The notes: generated from the letters alone by a model not told the origin. Counted from the first letter of the stretch, positions 6,660 through 53,825 are shown. The stretch: DNA of 64,000 nt from an uncultured Nitrososphaerota archaeon (GCA_963701075.1 OY969559.1:96001-160000); one strand, 5' to 3'. Program-made: numbers and translations.

Positions 6660-7870
6660 TTGACTACATGCAGACTACTATGGATGTAATAAAATTGCAT
6701 GTGGAGACTTAATGCATATGCGCAATCACAAGTTCAGGTTATATCCAAACAATGTCATCAAGGCCAGACTAGATGCAACACTTGAAGCCTCACGCTGGTT
6801 ATACAACTACCTTTTGTCCAAAAACCTTCAGTCAAAGGAAGACATGCAGTTTGCTCTTACAGAGCTGAAAGAGAATGAATCGTGGCTGAAACTGTATCAT
6901 AGCAAGATGCTCCAGATGATACCACATAGGATAGATAGTGCAAGAAGATCACTAATAGAGAAGAAAAAGAGAGGATATGATACAGGTCAGCTGCAATATG
7001 CTACAAGGGATGAATGGAGCACATTTGTCTATAACCAATCTGGGTTTGAGATCAAACTACATGGTAAGGCGGATCTGCTCTGGCTGTCAAAGATAGGATG
7101 TATGGAGATAAGATTACACAGGCCAATAAATAGCAATATCAAACAGGTAACCATAACAAAGAAGGCTGAGAAATGGTATGCTATTATTGCAATAGAGACA
7201 CAGCCAATTTTGCCTAAACTCATCAATCTAAAGAAAAGTGTTGGTATTGATGTTGGCATCAAGAATTATGCATATGATTCAGATGGAAATGTAGTACCAA
7301 ATCCACATAACTTGCAGAAGATGTTAAAGCCGCTGGTGAGAGCGCAGAGAAAGCTATCACGAAGAGTCAGGGGTTCATGCAACTACAAGAAGGCAAAACG
7401 TTGGTATCAGATTCTGCATCAGCGAATTGCAAACAGGAGAAAGGATTTTCAGCATAAACTCTCTGCACACTATGCTAAAAAATATGATGTTGTTTTCATG
7501 GAGAGATTACAATTACGGAATATGATAAAAAACCATAATCTTGCCCAGAAAATATTAGATGCAGGATGGGGTTCATTCAAAGATATTGTAGATTACAAAT
7601 GCATGGTTGTAGATGTAGAACCAAGGAACACAACAATAGATTGTTCTAAATGTATAAACAAGGTACCAAAGACACTTGCCATAAGAATTCATGTGTGCGA
7701 TCAATGTGGTTTATCTATTGATCGCGACCATAACGCAAGCCTCAACATACTCAAGCGAGGACTGGCGCTGTGGAACCTACCGATGGAGCATCGGGAAGTC
7801 ACGCCTGTGGAGATCTCACAGAGATCAAGGAAGCAGGAAGAAGCCTATCTACAAGGGTAGAGTAGCTCAC
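6660..7870 (+). mobile_element. non-autonomous IS200/IS605-family element (solo tnpB, IS1341-like)
   Basis: Left imperfect hairpin ctacatgcag/ttgcatgtgg (6664-6704), tnpB ORF, right subterminal hairpin ending in GCTCAC at 7870; no tnpA; ends approximate. Confidence 0.6.
6712..7860 (+). CDS. tnpB: RNA-guided endonuclease TnpB
   Basis: N-terminal KFRLYP, RuvC-I GIDVG, RuvC-II VFMERL, zinc finger CSKC/CDQC, RuvC-III DRDHNASLNI. Confidence 0.95.
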   Translation: MHMRNHKFRLYPNNVIKARLDATLEASRWLYNYLLSKNLQSKEDMQFALTELKENESWLKLYHSKMLQMIPHRIDSARRSLIEKKKRGYDTGQLQYATRDEWSTFVYNQSGFEIKLHGKADLLWLSKIGCMEIRLHRPINSNIKQVTITKKAEKWYAIIAIETQPILPKLINLKKSVGIDVGIKNYAYDSDGNVVPNPHNLQKMLKPLVRAQRKLSRRVRGSCNYKKAKRWYQILHQRIANRRKDFQHKLSAHYAKKYDVVFMERLQLRNMIKNHNLAQKILDAGWGSFKDIVDYKCMVVDVEPRNTTIDCSKCINKVPKTLAIRIHVCDQCGLSIDRDHNASLNILKRGLALWNLPMEHREVTPVEISQRSRKQEEAYLQG

Positions 7871-17295: not shown

Positions 17296-17330
17296 GTTGA
17301 CTGTTGACTCTGACCGGTATTAATTATTTG

Positions 17331-17383
17331 GTTCTGTCAAATCTACGGTTGATAATATCATGCCGAGACTAACTTGACAGAAC
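17331..17383. mobile_element. 53-bp MITE-like element with GTTCTGTCAA terminal inverted repeats
   Basis: gttctgtcaa...ttgacagaac; both ends resemble the ends of the tnpB element at 48461-49743. Confidence 0.7.
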
Positions 17384-17413
17384 TGATTAAAAAGATGGGT
17401 AAGATTTTTGTCT

Positions 17414-45752: not shown

Positions 45753-47465
45753 CTAATTTTTTTCTAGTCTTAATGCAGTGATAAATGATGAACCGTCAGC
45801 TAGAGAAAAATTAATTGTTTTAACTTGCATCTTGTATACGAGTGCAGTGTTTTCAATCGTATAGACTACGGAACAAACTGGATCTTTTTTGGTTTGTTCA
45901 ATTGAAAGTAGAGAACAATCAGGCGGTGTTGGATAGGCATAGATTAGGAAAAGATAGTCATTATCTCTCAAATCTAAAGAGCCTATTTTTTGCATAGGAT
46001 CGTGGAATTTTCCTAATTCTTCCATCTGCGGTAATGTCCATTGTAATGTAATTGGAATAACATTGCCGTTAGTATAGAAAGGAATAACCTTAGCGGTAAA
46101 AAAATCAACGGAGACGATTTTTAAATGATTTTGGTTTGCATAATCATAAATTTTTTCATATACCTTCGAGGTATCAGCAGTAGAAGAATGATCTAGAGTG
46201 TTAAATCCGCTAGCCAGAAGCGGTAGCTGTGTCAACCCAACTATTACAATAGATGAAATAAGTAAATAATTAATTTTTCTCGAAGACAATAGCAATCTTG
46301 CTTTCCCCATATTGTTAGAAATGATATCAAAGCCTTTACCAATAGATAGAAACATGAATGGTAAAATTACGCTCATTTGAATTGGTAAAAATTCAGATAC
46401 TGTAAATGAACTCGATATGAAAATTCCGCTGATTATTAAAAAAATAGATGCAATTCTTCTTGATTCTTTTTTTCTTTTTACCACATACCATATGGAAACA
46501 ATTGTGGTCAATAAGAAAATGGCTGGGAAAACATAACTTGTAACATTCCATGAATGGTTAGAGTTTGCAAATAAAAATGCAACTTGTGGATGAGCTAGAA
46601 AATCATATACATCGTGAATGCGCATACTCATATTAGATATAAAATCAGTGTTAGACGCATGGAGATATGCTGAATTATCTCCCGAAACTGTTTTTGTTAG
46701 AAATGGAATTAGTGAATGAACTGAGCTAATGAAATACCCTACCAGCACATGACTGAACCCAAGGACAAGAGCTGTGCTTGACACAGCAATAATCTTATAT
46801 TTACTTTGGCTGGAGGCTGTAAATCTGTTCTTGAATTTGTTTATCCATAATGGTATAGTAAACATAAACCCAATGATTATCCAGACAAACCAGAGATATT
46901 CGTAAACACCAATTCCGATAAGTAATAATGCAACAAACAGATAGCGATGTTTAAGTGTCCTGAGATATCGTATACCAAATATTAAAACAAGCAACGCTAT
47001 GCAAAGATCTGACCAATCATACAATGCTGACTGCCTAGAATAAAAAACAAATGACGGTAGAATAGAAAGTAGAGATGCAGAGATCATACCTACTTTCTTA
47101 CAAAATATTTCTTTACCTGTAAAATACGTTAAAAATAATACTGAAATGGCCATAACCATTTCGTATATTCTTATTGCAGTAACGCTTATACCAAAAAAAT
47201 ACAAAAAAGGAGTTGAAAGATAGCTTGCTATGCCATTTCCGTTATACTGTTGCCATGCTAAAGGATATGGTCCTATATGTGCTCCCCACTGACGTGAATA
47301 ATGATACAGATCTGAATTGTCAGAAGAAATTAATGATAAAGACATTATAGATGGCGAAGTTTCGTCTGCCCAAAGTGGCGGCAAACCAAAATCATAGAAA
47401 TGGAATCCAGATGTCACAAGTGCAATGGATAAAAGAAAGTACAATTCAGAGTTTTTGAGAAACAT
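45753..47465 (-). CDS. ArnT/PMT-family (GT-C) membrane glycosyltransferase
   Basis: LPPLWADE loop after the first TM, FGISVTAIR, PSFVFYSR, many TM helices; visibly AT-rich. Confidence 0.82.
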   Translation of the reverse strand: MFLKNSELYFLLSIALVTSGFHFYDFGLPPLWADETSPSIMSLSLISSDNSDLYHYSRQWGAHIGPYPLAWQQYNGNGIASYLSTPFLYFFGISVTAIRIYEMVMAISVLFLTYFTGKEIFCKKVGMISASLLSILPSFVFYSRQSALYDWSDLCIALLVLIFGIRYLRTLKHRYLFVALLLIGIGVYEYLWFVWIIIGFMFTIPLWINKFKNRFTASSQSKYKIIAVSSTALVLGFSHVLVGYFISSVHSLIPFLTKTVSGDNSAYLHASNTDFISNMSMRIHDVYDFLAHPQVAFLFANSNHSWNVTSYVFPAIFLLTTIVSIWYVVKRKKESRRIASIFLIISGIFISSSFTVSEFLPIQMSVILPFMFLSIGKGFDIISNNMGKARLLLSSRKINYLLISSIVIVGLTQLPLLASGFNTLDHSSTADTSKVYEKIYDYANQNHLKIVSVDFFTAKVIPFYTNGNVIPITLQWTLPQMEELGKFHDPMQKIGSLDLRDNDYLFLIYAYPTPPDCSLLSIEQTKKDPVCSVVYTIENTALVYKMQVKTINFSLADGSSFITALRLEKN

Positions 47466-47586
47466 ATCCTTAACTTATAAAAGATGCTTCTAAATAAACA
47501 CGCATTCCCAAGTGAGAATGGGTTTGTCAAAATTTAAAATCTTGATTACAATTTTTCATTTCATATTGAAATCTAATTCATAAAAG

Positions 47587-47676
47587 CGGGTCTAGTGGGA
47601 TTTGAACCCACGACATAGGGATGTCTCCGAAAAGATCATAAGAGTCCCTCGCTCTACCTGGCTGAGCCATAGACCC
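47587..47676 (-). tRNA. tRNA-Lys(CTT) with 16-nt intron (47623-47638)
   Basis: Minus strand GGGTCTA/TAGACCC acceptor stem, aggga-CTCTTA[tgatcttttcggagac]A-tccct anticodon arm with canonical 37/38 intron, GTTCAAATC T-loop. Confidence 0.92.
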
Positions 47677-47730
47677 GCAAAATAGCAAACGCTAAATTCG
47701 TTATTTAAACTTGCCAAAAATAAGATGAAT

Positions 47731-48328
47731 TTAGTTTTTGACTGTCTCGATTTGAGAATATTTTTCCAGTATTTTTGTCAATACTGTAGAAACTGGAACA
47801 TTGTTCATCTTCTCTTTTTCTTCCAAGAGTTTTCGGTATGCATCAAGTGTGATGTATACTGGAATTGAACCATTGCCTTCCAATAGTCCACGAACTCTGT
47901 ACAGCGCAGTCTCCATTCCCTTCTCGGCAACTTTTGCAAACTTGACCTTGTTGAGAATTCCACCCAGAGGACCAAATGGCATTTCATAGTTTACTGTCAT
48001 GGTAACGCGGGTTGATTTCTCACCCAGTTCCTTGAACTCTACTGAAATATTCCATGCTTTGAATGGTCCTTTGATCATTTTCAGCTGCAATCTTTTGTTC
48101 TGGTATAAACTCAGTTGTTTCACAGTCCCACTCTAGTCTCTTGCCATCAAAGTCACCTATCACTCTAAAGGTTGTACCTACACCCATTCCTGCCTTTACA
48201 TCCATAGGAACTACGGTCATTCCTACTCGCTCTTCGAACTGGTCAGAAATGTGCTCTGGTCTTGCAAAGTATGTAAAAACATTCAAGGTCTTCTCTTTGA
48301 TGTCAATTGATTTACTGACAGATGTCAT
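47731..48328 (-). CDS. SRPBCC (START-like) family protein; apparent +1 frameshift at ~48082
   Basis: MTSVSKSIDI..VF.YFARPE...TEFIPEQKIAA joins KMIKGPFKAWN...YEMPFGPLGGIL after removing one base. Confidence 0.82.
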
Positions 48329-48460
48329 ATACAGTGGGCAATCTTTTTCAACTTGATTTAAAGCTTTTGCTAATTTCCAGCGATCGTAAGACTTGGAGGG
48401 AATAGTTGAAGCATTCTCAGCTGTTCTGATTTGCGTCTTATGGTGTTGATCTAACAATAG

Positions 48461-49743
48461 GTTCTGTCAAGTTTATTGCTCATGAACTATCAAATAGATC
48501 GCAGTTATTGCAAAATAACCTCCTGATTTATTATATCGTATCAGCAGAATCTCCACACACTTGTTAGCTACCAAATCCATCAAACAATCATACCAACAAA
48601 ACAATGATCTTGACAGCATGATGGAAACATTTCGACAGATGGTAAACTATTGTATAAGATTGGGTCTTGAAAGCAATATTTCCACTCTAAAGAAATTCTC
48701 ATCACTTCATTACAAAGATCTAGAAAAATACAACATTCAATCAAAATACAAGCTTACTGCCATGTCTCAAGCTTGTGGAAGACTTGCGCAAATGAAAAAA
48801 GACATTAAGAAAGGCAAAACTCCAAAGTACCCATACGTACAGAAATCGTTCCTAGTCTCATGTTATGGCTTCAAGATAAACGGTCAATTACTTTCAATCC
48901 CAGTAGGAGATAGAAGACACATCCACATTATACTGAACTATCATACACAAGCAATTCTCTCAGACAAATCACTCAAGGTCAAATCATTTGTAATCACACC
49001 AGATTCAATCAGCCTTTGTGTACAAAAGGAAGTTGAAGAGATTGAATGCAATAGCACCATTGGAATAGACAGGAATCTACGAAATGTCACAGTAGGAAAC
49101 CATGATAAAGTAACAATGTATGACATGTCAGATATACCAGAAATCACACATCGTGCAAAAAAGATTATCTCATCATTCAAAAGAAATGACCATAGAATAA
49201 GACAAAAAATCTACTCCAAGATTAGTAATAGAAGAGCAAGAAGAGTAAAACAATTCCTCAACAGAATCTCAAAAGACATTGTACAAAAAGCAAGAGAATC
49301 CAAATCCATAATAGTATTTGAAGATTTGAAAGGTATTCGTAAACTCTACAAAAAAGGAAATGGTCAAGGGAAAAAATATCGTGGAATTATGAATTCATGG
49401 TCATTCTACGAGTTACAGAGACAGATACAATACAAAGCAGACTGGAAAGGAATTCCAGTACGATTTGTATCACCAGTACGCACCAGCATACTGTGTCCAA
49501 TATGCGGGGATAGAACCCAAGAGGATAGAGCACAACATCGTCAAGTTTGGTGCAGCAGTTGTAAAAAATTAATGGATCGTGACATTGTCGCAGCCATGAA
49601 TATCTCTTACAAGGGGTTGCAAAAGTTCTGCAATCCTAGTGGGCTTTCAGAAAAAGCAATGAGGGGGAACTTGGATAACGCAATGCCAGTAATCCTCCGA
49701 GTCGATGGAAGCAAGTTATCTCAACAACCAGAGATGACAGAAC
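48461..49743 (+). mobile_element. TIR-bounded element carrying only tnpB
   Basis: gttctgtca(agtt) at 48461 and tgacagaac at 49735-49743; no transposase inside. Confidence 0.65.
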
Positions 49744-49766
49744 TTATTAAAGAAAAAGACCAGTAA
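48561..49766 (+). CDS. tnpB: RNA-guided endonuclease TnpB (different subfamily from 6712-7860)
   Basis: RuvC-I GIDRN, RuvC-II IVFEDL, WSFYELQRQIQYKA, CPICG/CSSC zinc finger, RuvC-III DRDIVAAMNI. Confidence 0.93.
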   Translation: MLATKSIKQSYQQNNDLDSMMETFRQMVNYCIRLGLESNISTLKKFSSLHYKDLEKYNIQSKYKLTAMSQACGRLAQMKKDIKKGKTPKYPYVQKSFLVSCYGFKINGQLLSIPVGDRRHIHIILNYHTQAILSDKSLKVKSFVITPDSISLCVQKEVEEIECNSTIGIDRNLRNVTVGNHDKVTMYDMSDIPEITHRAKKIISSFKRNDHRIRQKIYSKISNRRARRVKQFLNRISKDIVQKARESKSIIVFEDLKGIRKLYKKGNGQGKKYRGIMNSWSFYELQRQIQYKADWKGIPVRFVSPVRTSILCPICGDRTQEDRAQHRQVWCSSCKKLMDRDIVAAMNISYKGLQKFCNPSGLSEKAMRGNLDNAMPVILRVDGSKLSQQPEMTELIKEKDQ

Positions 49767-49772
49767 AAAGAG

Positions 49773-50336
49773 ATGGTTAACTTTCGATTTCTAGTTGCCA
49801 TGTTTGCTTTAGTGTTAGTTCTTTCTCCCATGATACAATATGCAAGTGCCCATGAGGATCTAAACTCTGGCGACGAGTCGATAGGAAATTATGAAGTGCA
49901 GGTAGCAACAGACCCTGAGATCCCATCTGCCAACCAGCCTTTCAAATTAAGTTTTAGAGTTCTAAATTACCAATCAGCCTCTAATCTGTTCAATTCATTT
50001 GACACTAGGCTAAGCGAGGTTGATCACTTTAGGATGGGAATTAGAATTTATTACAACAACGAGCTAGTATCAACAATTCCAGTACAAGACTTCAAGGGCG
50101 GGGAGTGGTCTACTAATTACGTGTTTCATGAATCTGGGAACCATGTCATGTTCGTTGATCTCTATGATGTTGGACCTGGCGGACAGCCCCTGACCTTTAT
50201 TTACAATATCAGTGTGCTTGACGTATTTGGCCCACTATTTGTGTATATCATCTCAGCAGGAGGCATGTCATGCTTTGTCTTACTTGGATGGGTAGTAGTT
50301 ACAAATAAAAGAAAAAAAGTAAAATCTAAGCACTAG
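49773..50336 (+). CDS. secreted, membrane-anchored Ig-like protein
   Basis: Signal peptide ending ASA|H (N-terminal His in mature protein), C-terminal TM helix and basic tail. Confidence 0.78.
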   Translation: MVNFRFLVAMFALVLVLSPMIQYASAHEDLNSGDESIGNYEVQVATDPEIPSANQPFKLSFRVLNYQSASNLFNSFDTRLSEVDHFRMGIRIYYNNELVSTIPVQDFKGGEWSTNYVFHESGNHVMFVDLYDVGPGGQPLTFIYNISVLDVFGPLFVYIISAGGMSCFVLLGWVVVTNKRKKVKSKH

Positions 50337-50772
50337 CCTTTATTGTGGCACCGCAAGGAAGTTTGAAGGCATAGATTGCAGTGAGCAGGGTCATTGCAAA
50401 AAGCAAGATGCCAATACCATTATGAATTGCAACTATTGTTGCCTTGAGTTGTGTGTTGATGACAATTGCACCAAGCACTATCTGCGATGCTGCAAAAACT
50501 GCTGCAAGCGTTCCAGTGATTCTAAGGTTCTTGTGAGAGCCTGCAACTTTCCAGCTTGCAACGGCAGTAACTATTATCATAACACCAGTCATTGCAGCAA
50601 TTAATCTATGAGTCCATTCTGTCAAGTATGCTGCAGAAGGTAAGAATCCGCTAGGGCATAGCGGCCATTGTGGACACGCAAGTCCCTGTCCACTTGACTC
50701 TAGATATCCACCAATGAACATTAGAGAATAAAGAATTACCAGCGAAGCAAGTGCGAGATATTTGAAGTACAT
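50326..50772 (-). CDS. short heme A synthase (COX15/CtaA family)
   Basis: GLACPQWPLC, EWTHRL, SQIVLGA, conserved His in last helix; in cox operon. Confidence 0.9.
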   Translation of the reverse strand: MYFKYLALASLVILYSLMFIGGYLESSGQGLACPQWPLCPSGFLPSAAYLTEWTHRLIAAMTGVMIIVTAVASWKVAGSHKNLRITGTLAAVFAASQIVLGAIVINTQLKATIVAIHNGIGILLFAMTLLTAIYAFKLPCGATIKASA

Positions 50773-51789
50773 TTATTTTTCTACGATAAAGTGTCCGTCC
50801 ATTCCAAGTGCTGCATGTCCTGGGACAGTACAGATGTAATGGTATAATCCTGGAGTGCCTGCAACAAATGTTACAGTACCGGTATCTCCTGGTTTCATTG
50901 GACTATCTGGAGTTTTGTACGCTGCATTCCAGACAACTCCGCTTGGATTGTTTGGATCTGTCACTATGCCAAATGCGTGAAACACCTTGCTTGGATTGCT
51001 CACGTTAATTGTAACTGTGTCACCAGAGTGTACTGTAATGTCTGGGTTTGTTCCTGTGCCTCCCGTTCCATTAAAGCCATATTTTGAAAAGTCAGAACTG
51101 ACCTCAAAAGCAAGTGAGAACGACTCTGTATTTCCATTTGCTGCTGCAGTGCCACCAGTTCCTGCAGGGATGCTACTGGCTCCGCTTCCTCCTCCCACAA
51201 TTATCTCTCCTTGCATGCCAAGTTCTCTGTGGCCTGGGACTGCGCAGATATAGTAGTAAGTTCCGGCAGATGCCGGAATAAATGTAACAGTGCCACTTTG
51301 TCCAGGCTTCATTGGGCTGTCAGCAGTTCCAATTGTAGTGCCGTCAATTGCAGGTCCTGGACCACTTGTTGATGCGGTAATTGCAAATGCATGAAATGAT
51401 TTACCACCGTTTGTTACAGAAAATACAATTTTATCTCCAATGCTTGCGTTAACAGTCGGATTAGCCCCTGGAGAACCTGTTGGCGCATCAAAGCCATACT
51501 TTGAGAAGTCAGGCGACTCTACAAATTTTAGTGAGACGTCAATCTCTTTTCCTGTAAATGTTCCTTGGGTAGATGATGGGCCGCTGCCGGAAGTTTGATT
51601 TGCAGCTTGTGCTTCCATTTGCTGTTCTTGAAGTTTACCTGCATTTGGCAAGTAAGAGTTCCAATAATCATAATGTGTGAAAAAGAGGGCGCCGCCTATT
51701 ACTTGGACACCGATAATAATTGCAAGCATCTTTCCAAGTCTTTTAGAGGAGGTCCTATTGATTGGAGTTTCGTGTTCGTTATGGCTCAT
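50773..51789 (-). CDS. membrane-anchored two-domain blue (type 1) copper protein
   Basis: Two ligand sets: HAF..CAVPGHRELGM and HAF..CTVPGHAALGM. Confidence 0.9.
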   Translation of the reverse strand: MSHNEHETPINRTSSKRLGKMLAIIIGVQVIGGALFFTHYDYWNSYLPNAGKLQEQQMEAQAANQTSGSGPSSTQGTFTGKEIDVSLKFVESPDFSKYGFDAPTGSPGANPTVNASIGDKIVFSVTNGGKSFHAFAITASTSGPGPAIDGTTIGTADSPMKPGQSGTVTFIPASAGTYYYICAVPGHRELGMQGEIIVGGGSGASSIPAGTGGTAAANGNTESFSLAFEVSSDFSKYGFNGTGGTGTNPDITVHSGDTVTINVSNPSKVFHAFGIVTDPNNPSGVVWNAAYKTPDSPMKPGDTGTVTFVAGTPGLYHYICTVPGHAALGMDGHFIVEK

Positions 51790-51790
51790 A

Positions 51791-53338
51791 TCAGTATCCT
51801 GAGTGGCCGCCGTGTGGATTCTTTGCTTCTACAGGATAGTAATACTTGCCACCAAGTCCCCATGGATCGTCCATATTGGCTGGCTTGCCTTTTGCGGCAT
51901 AGTATATCAATGAGGCTAAGAATACTGCAAAGCTTGCTCCAATTATCCACGCTCCAATTGTTGCAATCTGGTTTAGCTGTGTCCATGACGTAAATTCTGG
52001 CGGATAGTCATAGACTCTTCTTGGCATTCCTTCAAGACCAAGCAAGTGTTGTGTGAAGAACGTCTGAACAGTTCCCCAGAACATTGCGACAAAGTGAACG
52101 CTTGCCCATTTTTCGCTGTACATTCTTCCTGTGATATATGGGAACATGTAGTATATCATGGCTACAAATCCAAATCCAATTGTTCCTACAAGGAACAAGT
52201 GCATGTGGCCTACTACCCAATAAGTTCCGTGCGAGATAAAGTCTAACGGCATTGCAGAGTTTAGCACACCGCCAGCACCTGCAGAGAAAAATAACGCAAT
52301 TCCACCAACTGCAAACTTCATTGGAGCTGCAAATCTAATTCTGCCTCCCCACATTGTTGCAAGGAAGTTAAAGACATGCATTCCTGATGCAGGAACTGCA
52401 GCTAGAGTACCAATCATAAAGACTACCTTTGTTGTAAAGTCCATTCCAGTAGAGTACATGTGATGTCCCCAAGAGGCAAAGCCTATGATACCAAGCATGA
52501 CAAATGCAAAGACACCGGAGGCCTGACTGTATAGCGGCTTTCTTGAGAACCGTGGTATAATCTCATACATCATTCCAATTGATGGTAACAGGAATATGTA
52601 CACCTCAGGATGGAACGTGAACCAGAACAAATGCAAGTATGCAATTGGATCTCCGCCTGCAAATGGATTAAAGAACGCGGAAATTCCAAGTCTGTCGGTT
52701 AGCATCATGATAAGTGCCGCGGCATATGTTGGCATTGCAACAATTGTCATCAAGGAAACTGTAAACATTGACCATGCAAATAATGGAACTCTTCTCAATG
52801 GAAGGTCTGGGTGTTTGCATTTGAGAATTGTTACAACAAAGTTAATTGATGATAAAATTGAGGATATGCCAAGAATTTTCATACCAAATATGAACATGTC
52901 TGCAGCAGGCCCAGGTGCTCTGATTATAGAGTATGGAGCATATGAGACCCAACTCGTATCTGCAAATCCAAGCCAGAGTAGTGCACCACCAACTGGATTC
53001 ATCCAGAATGCGATTGCGTTAAGTTTTGGATACGCCATGTCTTTGTATCTAACCATGATTGGAACTAGATAGTTACCAATACCGTTTGCAACCGGCAGAG
53101 CAAACAGGAAGAGCATTGTCAGACCGTGAACTGTAAATATTCTGTTAAATGTTGCCGAGTCTGAGATTAGGACTCCTTCTCCTGGGAAGAACAAGTGTGT
53201 CCTGATTATCATGGCCAAAACTCCACCCATAAACAAGAATGTGAGACCGGTTATGGTATAGAGATAACCCACATCAGTGTGGTGTGTTGAAAACATTATC
53301 TGCCAGACTGGTCGTGGCTTTTGAAGTTCTAGTACCAT
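51791..53338 (-). CDS. coxA: heme-copper oxidase subunit I
   Basis: TVHG, WFTFHPEVY, WGHHMY, VVGHMH, GMPRR. Confidence 0.96.
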   Translation of the reverse strand: MVLELQKPRPVWQIMFSTHHTDVGYLYTITGLTFLFMGGVLAMIIRTHLFFPGEGVLISDSATFNRIFTVHGLTMLFLFALPVANGIGNYLVPIMVRYKDMAYPKLNAIAFWMNPVGGALLWLGFADTSWVSYAPYSIIRAPGPAADMFIFGMKILGISSILSSINFVVTILKCKHPDLPLRRVPLFAWSMFTVSLMTIVAMPTYAAALIMMLTDRLGISAFFNPFAGGDPIAYLHLFWFTFHPEVYIFLLPSIGMMYEIIPRFSRKPLYSQASGVFAFVMLGIIGFASWGHHMYSTGMDFTTKVVFMIGTLAAVPASGMHVFNFLATMWGGRIRFAAPMKFAVGGIALFFSAGAGGVLNSAMPLDFISHGTYWVVGHMHLFLVGTIGFGFVAMIYYMFPYITGRMYSEKWASVHFVAMFWGTVQTFFTQHLLGLEGMPRRVYDYPPEFTSWTQLNQIATIGAWIIGASFAVFLASLIYYAAKGKPANMDDPWGLGGKYYYPVEAKNPHGGHSGY

Positions 53339-53396
53339 GTCATTACCTCTATCTTTTCAAATGTTTCTAATGTACATAAAATGTTTTTGGTTATTT

Positions 53397-53825
53397 TCAA
53401 GTGGCGTTATCATCCTCCACTACAAGCGATCCTCTCATGTTATAGTGCAAAAGACCACAATATTCTCTGCATTGTATAGGATATGTCCCTACCGTATCCG
53501 GTGCAAACCATGCATGATTTACATGACCTGGAACTGCATCTTCGAAGACTACCCAGTCTGGAATGTTAAATGAGTGCATTACATCTCTTGAATAGATCTC
53601 AAAGACATATGCATGGCCCTTCTTGACATGCAGAGTGCTAATCTCCTTTGTTCCATCTGCATGCTCAAAGCTCCAGTACCACTGCTGACCGGTTACTTTG
53701 ATAACTTCGGCATCGGCTGGAACGTCTTCAACTGCTTTTTGAACTATCCAAGAATCTACACCGACATAACATAAAACTGCAATAACGATAGCAACAAAGA
53801 CCCACTCGGCGGTATCGTGACCCAT
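53397..53825 (-). CDS. coxB: heme-copper oxidase subunit II (CuA domain)
   Basis: GQQWYW, DVMHSF, CREYCGLLHYNM. Confidence 0.95.
   Translation of the reverse strand: MGHDTAEWVFVAIVIAVLCYVGVDSWIVQKAVEDVPADAEVIKVTGQQWYWSFEHADGTKEISTLHVKKGHAYVFEIYSRDVMHSFNIPDWVVFEDAVPGHVNHAWFAPDTVGTYPIQCREYCGLLHYNMRGSLVVEDDNAT

Follow-up and report, generated by a model that had tools for sequence, protein, structure and literature searches.

A family of tnpB-only insertion elements with IS6-like ends and 8-bp target duplications in AOA

Introduction

TnpB is the ancestor of Cas12 and has been understood through the IS200/IS605 and IS607 elements, which leave scarless empty sites that are re-cut by TnpB. According to the available text of the relevant sources, neither group has terminal repeats or target duplications (PMC13565253), and the same has been stated of IS607 separately (PMC6188088). 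The elements of ammonia-oxidising archaea (AOA) described in this study are like the IS1341-type members of IS200/IS605 in that tnpB is the sole gene, a guide-RNA scaffold overlaps its 3' end and an A/T-rich motif lies 5' of the target; furthermore, as in the AOA family, core deletions leave end-only remnants of about 50 bp in the accessible excerpts of one report (PMC3119063). Unlike IS200/IS605 elements, as characterised in the accessible part of their description, the AOA family has terminal inverted repeats and 8-bp duplications (PMC13565253).

IS6/IS26 elements are defined, in the available sections of the corresponding source, by the terminal repeat consensus GGTTCTGTTGCAAA with conserved G1, G2 and G7, together with an 8-bp duplication, and in archaeal members the repeats measure at least 18 bp (PMC6807381). 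As far as that text goes, the AOA family is similar, with terminal repeats that start GGTTCTGT and carry G1, G2 and G7, and with an 8-bp duplication. It differs from IS6/IS26 in having no DDE gene inside the element, a cargo composed of tnpB and a structured RNA, and a T-R motif on one side only.

Another likeness is found in the non-autonomous Fanzor1 transposons of eukaryotes and their viruses (e.g., an ascovirus element), which, in the accessible portions of their description, are also nuclease-only and have clear terminal repeats and short duplications; their transposase family is unknown as well, and the repeat is part of the RNA scaffold (PMC10711439). The AOA family is distinguished from Fanzor1 by its archaeal TnpB, its IS6-like ends and a duplication that is variable and apparently forms the start of the guide, not the scaffold or the TAM. 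Moreover, TnpB proteins associated with DDE transposases and symmetrical ends are known for IS630 (PMC10691335) and have also been cited for ISL2 and IS1031 (PMC13565253), in both cases from the text available to us. Compared by description only, these DDE-associated TnpB branches (IS630, ISL2, IS1031; Altae-Tran et al., 2023, as accessible) share with the AOA elements symmetrical ends that are not those of IS605 or IS607; however, a DDE gene lies beside their tnpB, whereas the AOA elements have none, and carry another end type and an 8-bp duplication.

The available text of thaumarchaeal and archaeal insertion-sequence surveys does not mention this architecture (PMC6563490, PMC13343696). Likewise, our literature searches, whose scope lay outside the supplements of the main TnpB survey, found no description of a tnpB-only element with IS6-like ends and an 8-bp duplication.

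Results

The window analysed in this study is the whole 64,000-nt stretch of DNA from an uncultured Nitrososphaerota archaeon (GCA_963701075.1 OY969559.1:96001-160000), in which the second of two tnpB genes had been predicted to lie between terminal inverted repeats. In agreement with this original prediction, GTTCTGTCA was found at 48461-48469 (+) and its reverse complement TGACAGAAC at 49735-49743, both flanking an intact tnpB whose ORF reads through the right repeat; extended outward, positions 48456-48469 and 49735-49748 match at 13/14 nt. The left terminal inverted repeat, GGTTCTGTCAAGTTTATTGCTCAT (48460..48483, +), shares its first 8 nt with the family and, as given in the available source text, with the IS6/IS26 consensus, and opens a non-coding left end of 101 nt located 5' of tnpB (48460..48560, +), a spacing within the range of homologous loci. 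The right terminal repeat, TGACAGAACT (49735..49744, +), is degenerate, being complementary to the left end at 13/24 nt and finishing in T instead of the C of the family.

Directly 5' of the left end lies ATA (48457..48459, +), which is TAM-like by comparison with the family motif T-(A/G) and with an empty site, and which abuts the element because the window copy has no duplication. In fact, the flanking 8-mers of this copy, TAACAATA and TATTAAAG, match at 4/8 positions, bearing out the earlier statement that no long target-site duplication is visible. The degenerate right repeat and the lack of a duplication suggest that the window copy may no longer transpose; it is probably poor at transposing and could still be homing-competent, with nuclease and RNA intact. 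Within the window, the 9-mer GTTCTGTCA occurs four times against 0.82 expected, and 2/100 shuffles reach four. Inside the window alone, the case against chance for the repeat is only moderate; the decisive evidence comes from outside it, namely the homologous ends, the 8-bp duplications and the orthologous empty site.

The tnpB gene (48561..49766, +) encodes 401 aa from a TTG start that shares an alignment column with the M of the homologues. Its identity is indicated by alignment, by a match to Pfam PF07282 (Cas12f1-like_TNB; E=3e-19), accompanied by one to PF01385 under that model's cut-off (E=0.0049), and by PDB sequence matches of residues 166-357 to TnpB and Cas12f chains. The RuvC-like triad D170/E254/D341 is invariant across 26 aligned sequences, as are (26/26) the zinc-finger cysteines C312, C315, C331 and C334 (CxxC...CxxC), located between RuvC-II and RuvC-III in the TNB domain. 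These residues also align with the catalytic positions of the other, canonical TnpB of the window, and the claim that the second tnpB keeps its three acidic residues and zinc finger was upheld. In the same alignment, conservation of the TnpB protein extends to DGSKL and 3-5 further residues. The final 11 codons (49731-49763; EMTELIKEKDQ) and the TAA stop (49764-49766), which ends 23 nt beyond 49743 and outside the right repeat, are an unconserved read-through across this repeat into the flank.

There are 1770 homologues of this protein, whose source names are TnpB of Nitrosotalea and other AOA, and in the databases the family goes under the name IS200/IS605 TnpB. Judged from the source names and from the identity of its flanks to other loci, the window belongs to Nitrosotalea or a close relative. 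Longer or fused TnpB proteins were not found, which is weak evidence, and the best TnpB matches in phage and plasmid collections were below 31% identity and gave no context. The first tnpB of the window (6712-7860) is of the canonical type (HTH_OrfB_IS605 + OrfB_IS605 + TNB), has no flanking inverted repeat and encodes a protein 25% identical to the second over the RuvC region.

In one scan of species-representative genomes, 196/202 candidate stretches encoded relatives, and 78 loci (1.06 Mb) were kept. A tblastn search of these loci and the window yielded 90 tnpB-like copies, of which 78 are full length and 69 include both ends. Among these 69 full-length AOA relatives, left ends begin GGTTCTGT..., 58-257 nt ahead of the start codon, and right ends finish ...ACAGAACC, 19-101 nt past the DGSKL codons, a conservation that is partly by construction since repeat positions 1-8 served to locate the ends. 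Over the first 24 nt, the two ends are complementary at 15 or more positions in 46/69 copies and at all 24 in six, and element size ranges from 1241 to 1482 bp (median 1290). Homologous tnpB loci, other genera included, have the same ends at equal relative positions; the repeats are true element ends, being common to these loci and consistent with the empty site. Throughout the 1.06 Mb, inverted-repeat pairs enclose only tnpB, decayed tnpB or short non-coding derivatives, apart from chance pairs over host genes, which agrees with tnpB as the only cargo. These comparisons show that window positions 48460-49744 represent one copy of a widespread AOA family of ~1.29-kb insertion elements with tnpB as sole gene. 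Among the loci kept, a decayed tnpB lies between family repeats at L074:12654-13308, and L069:454-690 is a 237-bp non-coding element with family repeats (20/24 nt) and no duplication, possibly a miniature derivative.

Regarding target duplication, a feature that goes beyond the original prediction, flanking 8-mers match at 8/8 positions in 26 of the 69 copies, at 7/8 in four, at 6/8 in one and at 4/8 or fewer in 38, the window copy included. When the right-hand duplicate was sought up to 200 nt away in copies without a duplication, the only gain was four copies recovered by boundary shifts of 1-3 nt, giving 34/69 in total. In shifted controls, 8/8 matches occurred in 0/1280 comparisons and 7/8 matches in 2/1280. 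At least 10 copies with perfect duplications are located on one complete Nitrosopumilus chromosome, with tnpB as their only gene. The 35/69 copies without a duplication, among them that of the window, count against the explanation favoured below.

The intergenic region occupied in the window could be compared across genomes. In L038, an orthologous empty site, the window flanks align with only ~17 nt between them. At the same region, L016 carries a family member 61% identical to that of the window, with TTAAAGAA on both sides of the element and once in the empty site, and L058 carries a 50%-identical member in opposite orientation. Once 48460-49744 is removed, the window reads ACAATA joined to TATTAAAGAA, which equals the uninterrupted L058 flank ACAATATATTGAAGAA and nearly equals the empty-site sequence ACATTATATTAAAGAA of L038. 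This indicates that the boundaries 48460/49744 are right and that the window copy is unduplicated; the original prediction had named an empty site as the place where the boundaries might shift, and L038 agrees with them. Of the three refuting conditions set out with that prediction, two were examined, and neither went against it. Short end-like relics were also observed at this region, namely the left-end-like GTTCTGATTTGCG in the left flank of the window (48423-48435) and the right-end-like CAAGTCAACAGTACC in the left flank of L016.

A T-R motif beside the duplication was a further finding that had not been foreseen. At each of the 30 distinct sites whose duplication reaches 7/8 or 8/8, T occupies position -2 and A or G position -1 before the left duplicate (chance 0.148 per site), and position -3 is T in 20/30 and A in 7/30, so that the motif is usually TT(A/G). 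The four boundary-shifted copies also fit T-(A/G), which brings the count to 34/34 duplication-bearing copies. The mirror motif Y-A past the right duplicate is present at just 4/30 sites; since the motif is one-sided, the orientation of the element is fixed relative to a TTR-like motif. In copies with a duplication below 7/8, T-R is found at -10/-9 in 19/39, suggesting that left junctions are intact and right flanks altered. The TTR-like motif resembles the TTTR/NTTR PAMs of Cas12f, and TTR, just outside the duplication, would be the predicted TAM.

An omega-RNA-like structured region was recognised at 49643..49738 (+), with nested helices at 49643-49712 and a terminal hairpin at 49715-49722/49731-49738. 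The consensus built from 29 diverse right ends has five helices and 23 pairs. In this consensus, 93.2% of cells are paired, compared with 27-44% when partners are slid, and compensatory changes occur at 12 pairs, compared with 3-7 when slid; 0/500 shuffles reach the observed values. In the last helix, the S-K-L codons pair with the inner right repeat, leaving ACAGAACC as an unpaired 3' terminus. The window sequence by itself folds likewise (-40.3 kcal/mol, z -2.47), and Rfam returned no family matches at the locus. The covarying structure overlaps the 3' end of tnpB and stops at the right repeat, so that the flank is the expected guide, consistent with the earlier suggestion of an omega-RNA ending at the repeat and taking the flank as guide. 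Given where the RNA structure and the TAM-like motif lie, the predicted guide segment would be TATTAAAGAAAAAGAC (49745..49760, +), which is also the TATA-like promoter region of the gene at 49773-50336.

A second trace of the family in the window, likewise additional to the original prediction, is a 55-bp internal-deletion remnant of a sister element (17330..17384, -), identified by comparison with L017. In this remnant, 14 nt from the start of a left end run directly into the final 40 nt of a right end, and the deletion joins two CAAGTTA repeats (7-nt microhomology). L017 carries a full element (TnpB 62% identical) exactly at the site of the remnant, with flanks 92.6-96.6% identical. In Haloquadratum, a tnpB element has likewise lost its core, leaving 52 bp of ends only, according to the accessible text of PMC3119063.

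The promoter region of the gene at 49773-50336 is an insertion hot spot, with three different family members in three genomes and an empty site in a fourth, as compared among window 48380-49800, L016:2280-3800, L058 and L038:13960-14130. In this promoter region, a TATA-like TTATTAAAG is located 21-29 nt before the ATG. Two pairs of related loci showed an abrupt change of identity. Compared with the window, L053:3690-5245 (same locus, another genome) has 40 differences in 47680-48418, in a flank 95% identical, and is identical to it across 48419-49140, a stretch that takes in the element's first 681 nt. Between L003 and L005, which share an insertion, identity drops from 95.7% in the left flank to 87.5% in the element and 86.3% in the right flank. 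In both pairs, identity changes near the left end, as could result from homing-linked conversion or, alternatively, from chimeric metagenome contigs.

Regarding the wider neighbourhood, L038 and L053 resemble the window only from tRNA-Lys (47586-47676) onward and lack the segment 45150-47582, which contains a PMT_2-type glycosyltransferase (45753-47465) and is a variable region beside a tRNA. Downstream genes (50326-53825) encode cytochrome oxidase subunits I and II, a multicopper/plastocyanin-like protein and a CtaA-like protein, an ordinary AOA respiratory context.

The first 8 nt of the family repeat are identical to the IS6/IS26 consensus as reported in the source text at hand, and family ends average 8.4-9.1/14 matches to it, against 3.6 for random 14-mers, positions 1-8 being partly selected for. 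Terminal repeats of at least 14 bp that begin GG and have G at position 7 mark the IS6/IS26 family. With a duplication size of 8 bp, the ends are IS6-like, as had been suggested. Inverted repeats and a fixed 8-bp duplication indicate DDE-type chemistry. An IS6-type DDE transposase with an H-HTH domain is not encoded in the element, whose only ORF is tnpB, and the 1.06 Mb around the 90 copies yielded neither a transposase gene with these ends nor any IS6-family transposase. Accordingly, listing the contents between these ends, a check put forward with the original prediction, returned tnpB and its derivatives in the 1.06 Mb and no DDE transposase.

By ORF clustering, TnpB is the sole multi-copy family (89/852 ORFs). 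Two complete Nitrosopumilus chromosomes, of which ~13% each was inspected, contributed 14 loci with 142 ORFs other than tnpB; these were compared with protein models, ~96 with NCBIfam and 46 with Pfam, and include no IS6 transposase. Five of them matched transposase models (three ISH3, one IS5 fragment and one IS630), and the repeats of the ISH3 elements are unrelated to the family ends. No IS6 transposase was detected in the one haloarchaeal plasmid region that was checked. The ISH3-family elements of Nitrosopumilus are located at L065:16006-17384, L065:3088-4397 and L067:16999-18363 and have ~20-bp repeats (CAGTAGTTCCCAGATGTAGATTT and relatives); the IS630 transposase is at L065:6170-6835 and the IS5-family fragment at L061:5984-6517.

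Discussion

We favour, with a probability of roughly 60%, an account in which the AOA family comprises elements made of tnpB and an RNA scaffold, moved by a DDE-type enzyme from elsewhere and subject to RNA-guided homing. Transposition would be performed by an IS6/IS26-like DDE-type enzyme supplied from elsewhere, and the RNA guide would be the right flank, beginning with the duplicated 8 bp, with TTR as the TAM. An unoccupied or vacated site, reading TAM plus guide match, would be cut by TnpB, and an occupied site, where the match is preceded by ...GAACC, would be spared. Repair from the occupied copy would restore or spread the element (homing), and copies that landed beside a TAM would be those retained and seen. 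Since IS26-type transposition is replicative, a partner enzyme of the same kind would not excise the element, and only homing into empty alleles, not restoration, would be expected.

Of the earlier proposal of a non-autonomous transposon with terminal inverted repeats, moved in trans, the architecture, the cargo and the ends were supported, and the transposase with these ends was not found in the 1.06 Mb. The architecture, the boundaries and the guide prediction are supported by the comparisons among genomes; mobilisation in trans is inferred.

A one-sided motif tied to element orientation would be unexpected from a symmetric DDE transposase, which counts against the favoured account; under it, the 34/34 bias would have to stem from post-insertion selection. 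It is the way in which a one-sided predicted TAM accompanies every duplication-bearing insertion that gives the family its interest. Both the bias and the outcome of the transposase search would be explained if the element were autonomous, that is, if TnpB itself, or TnpB bound to the TAM, selected or executed insertion with an 8-bp duplication and no separate transposase took part. The 34 copies with a duplication share a single orientation at exactly 8 bp from T-(A/G) and have no mirror motif, no partner transposase appeared in the 1.06 Mb around 90 copies, and one Nitrosopumilus chromosome holds at least 10 perfect-duplication copies with tnpB alone. Furthermore, the accessible text on Haloquadratum describes strain-specific tnpB-only insertions though the tnpA genes of one strain are all pseudogenes (PMC3119063).

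However, the search covered ~13% of each complete genome, the guide of a parent copy cannot fit a new site, and the likeness of the ends to the IS6/IS26 repeat speaks for a DDE enzyme. In addition, we know of no TnpB that performs strand transfer, and characterised TnpB and Cas12 proteins cut the TAM-distal end of the target, not its first 0-8 bp. On balance, we consider an autonomous element unlikely, and a DDE-type enzyme acting from elsewhere is retained as the preferred reading.

For the window copy in particular, it could be argued that this is a fixed, immobile and possibly domesticated TnpB, kept at a promoter for a host function, with repeats that are mere relics. The right repeat has decayed to 13/24 nt, there is no duplication, the ORF reads into the flank, and the copy sits on the TATA-like region of the gene at 49773-50336 with ORF and RNA still intact. 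Nevertheless, its catalytic residues are intact, unlike those of nuclease-dead repressors, and only 55 bp remain of the sister copy 31 kb away. Moreover, the site is empty in L038 and holds other members in both orientations in L016 and L058, which denotes a hot spot and not a conserved host gene. Domestication is thus distinctly unlikely, and we continue to regard the window copy as a member of a mobile family.

The names given by the databases would place these proteins in an ordinary IS200/IS605 (IS1341-type) tnpB-only element, moved by a Y1 TnpA in trans, whose repeats would reflect RNA or DNA hairpin constraints, and the inner right repeat does pair within the RNA. The unduplicated window copy, with ATA abutting its left end, would also be accommodated, and insertion beside a short A/T-rich motif resembles TnpA target choice as outlined in the available text (PMC13565253). 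On the other hand, true 8-bp duplications were found in 34/69 copies and verified against the empty site, and the repeats are terminal, not subterminal, and complementary at up to 24/24 nt, both being features that IS200/IS605 and IS607 do not have in the accessible descriptions (PMC13565253, PMC6188088). No tnpA lies inside the window element. Consequently, this origin seems very improbable, and annotation pipelines, which file these elements under IS200/IS605, probably misclassify them.

Lastly, the inverted repeat might be put down to chance, or to a promoter/operator motif of divergent host genes whose halves were separated by the insertion of tnpB. In favour of this, a second inverted pair (17331/17375) is intergenic and all four copies of the 9-mer in the window are followed by A/T-rich, TATA-like sequence. 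However, the family ends recur at equivalent positions in tnpB loci of other genera, the 17330-17384 pair is what is left of the full L017 element, and the empty site L038 is devoid of the motif, so that this explanation is hardly credible and was ruled out.

Conclusion

In brief, an abundant AOA lineage places TnpB, normally tied to quite different transposons, in a classical inverted-repeat element with 8-bp duplications. This makes it testable how RNA-guided homing combines with DDE-type transposition in prokaryotes, a combination that so far has been documented mainly for eukaryotic Fanzors, and also which enzyme moves tnpB-only elements, a long-standing puzzle. From a practical point of view, the family would offer compact archaeal nucleases with a predicted TTR TAM. 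If the autonomous alternative were true, these elements would represent a transposon whose sole protein is an RNA-guided nuclease.
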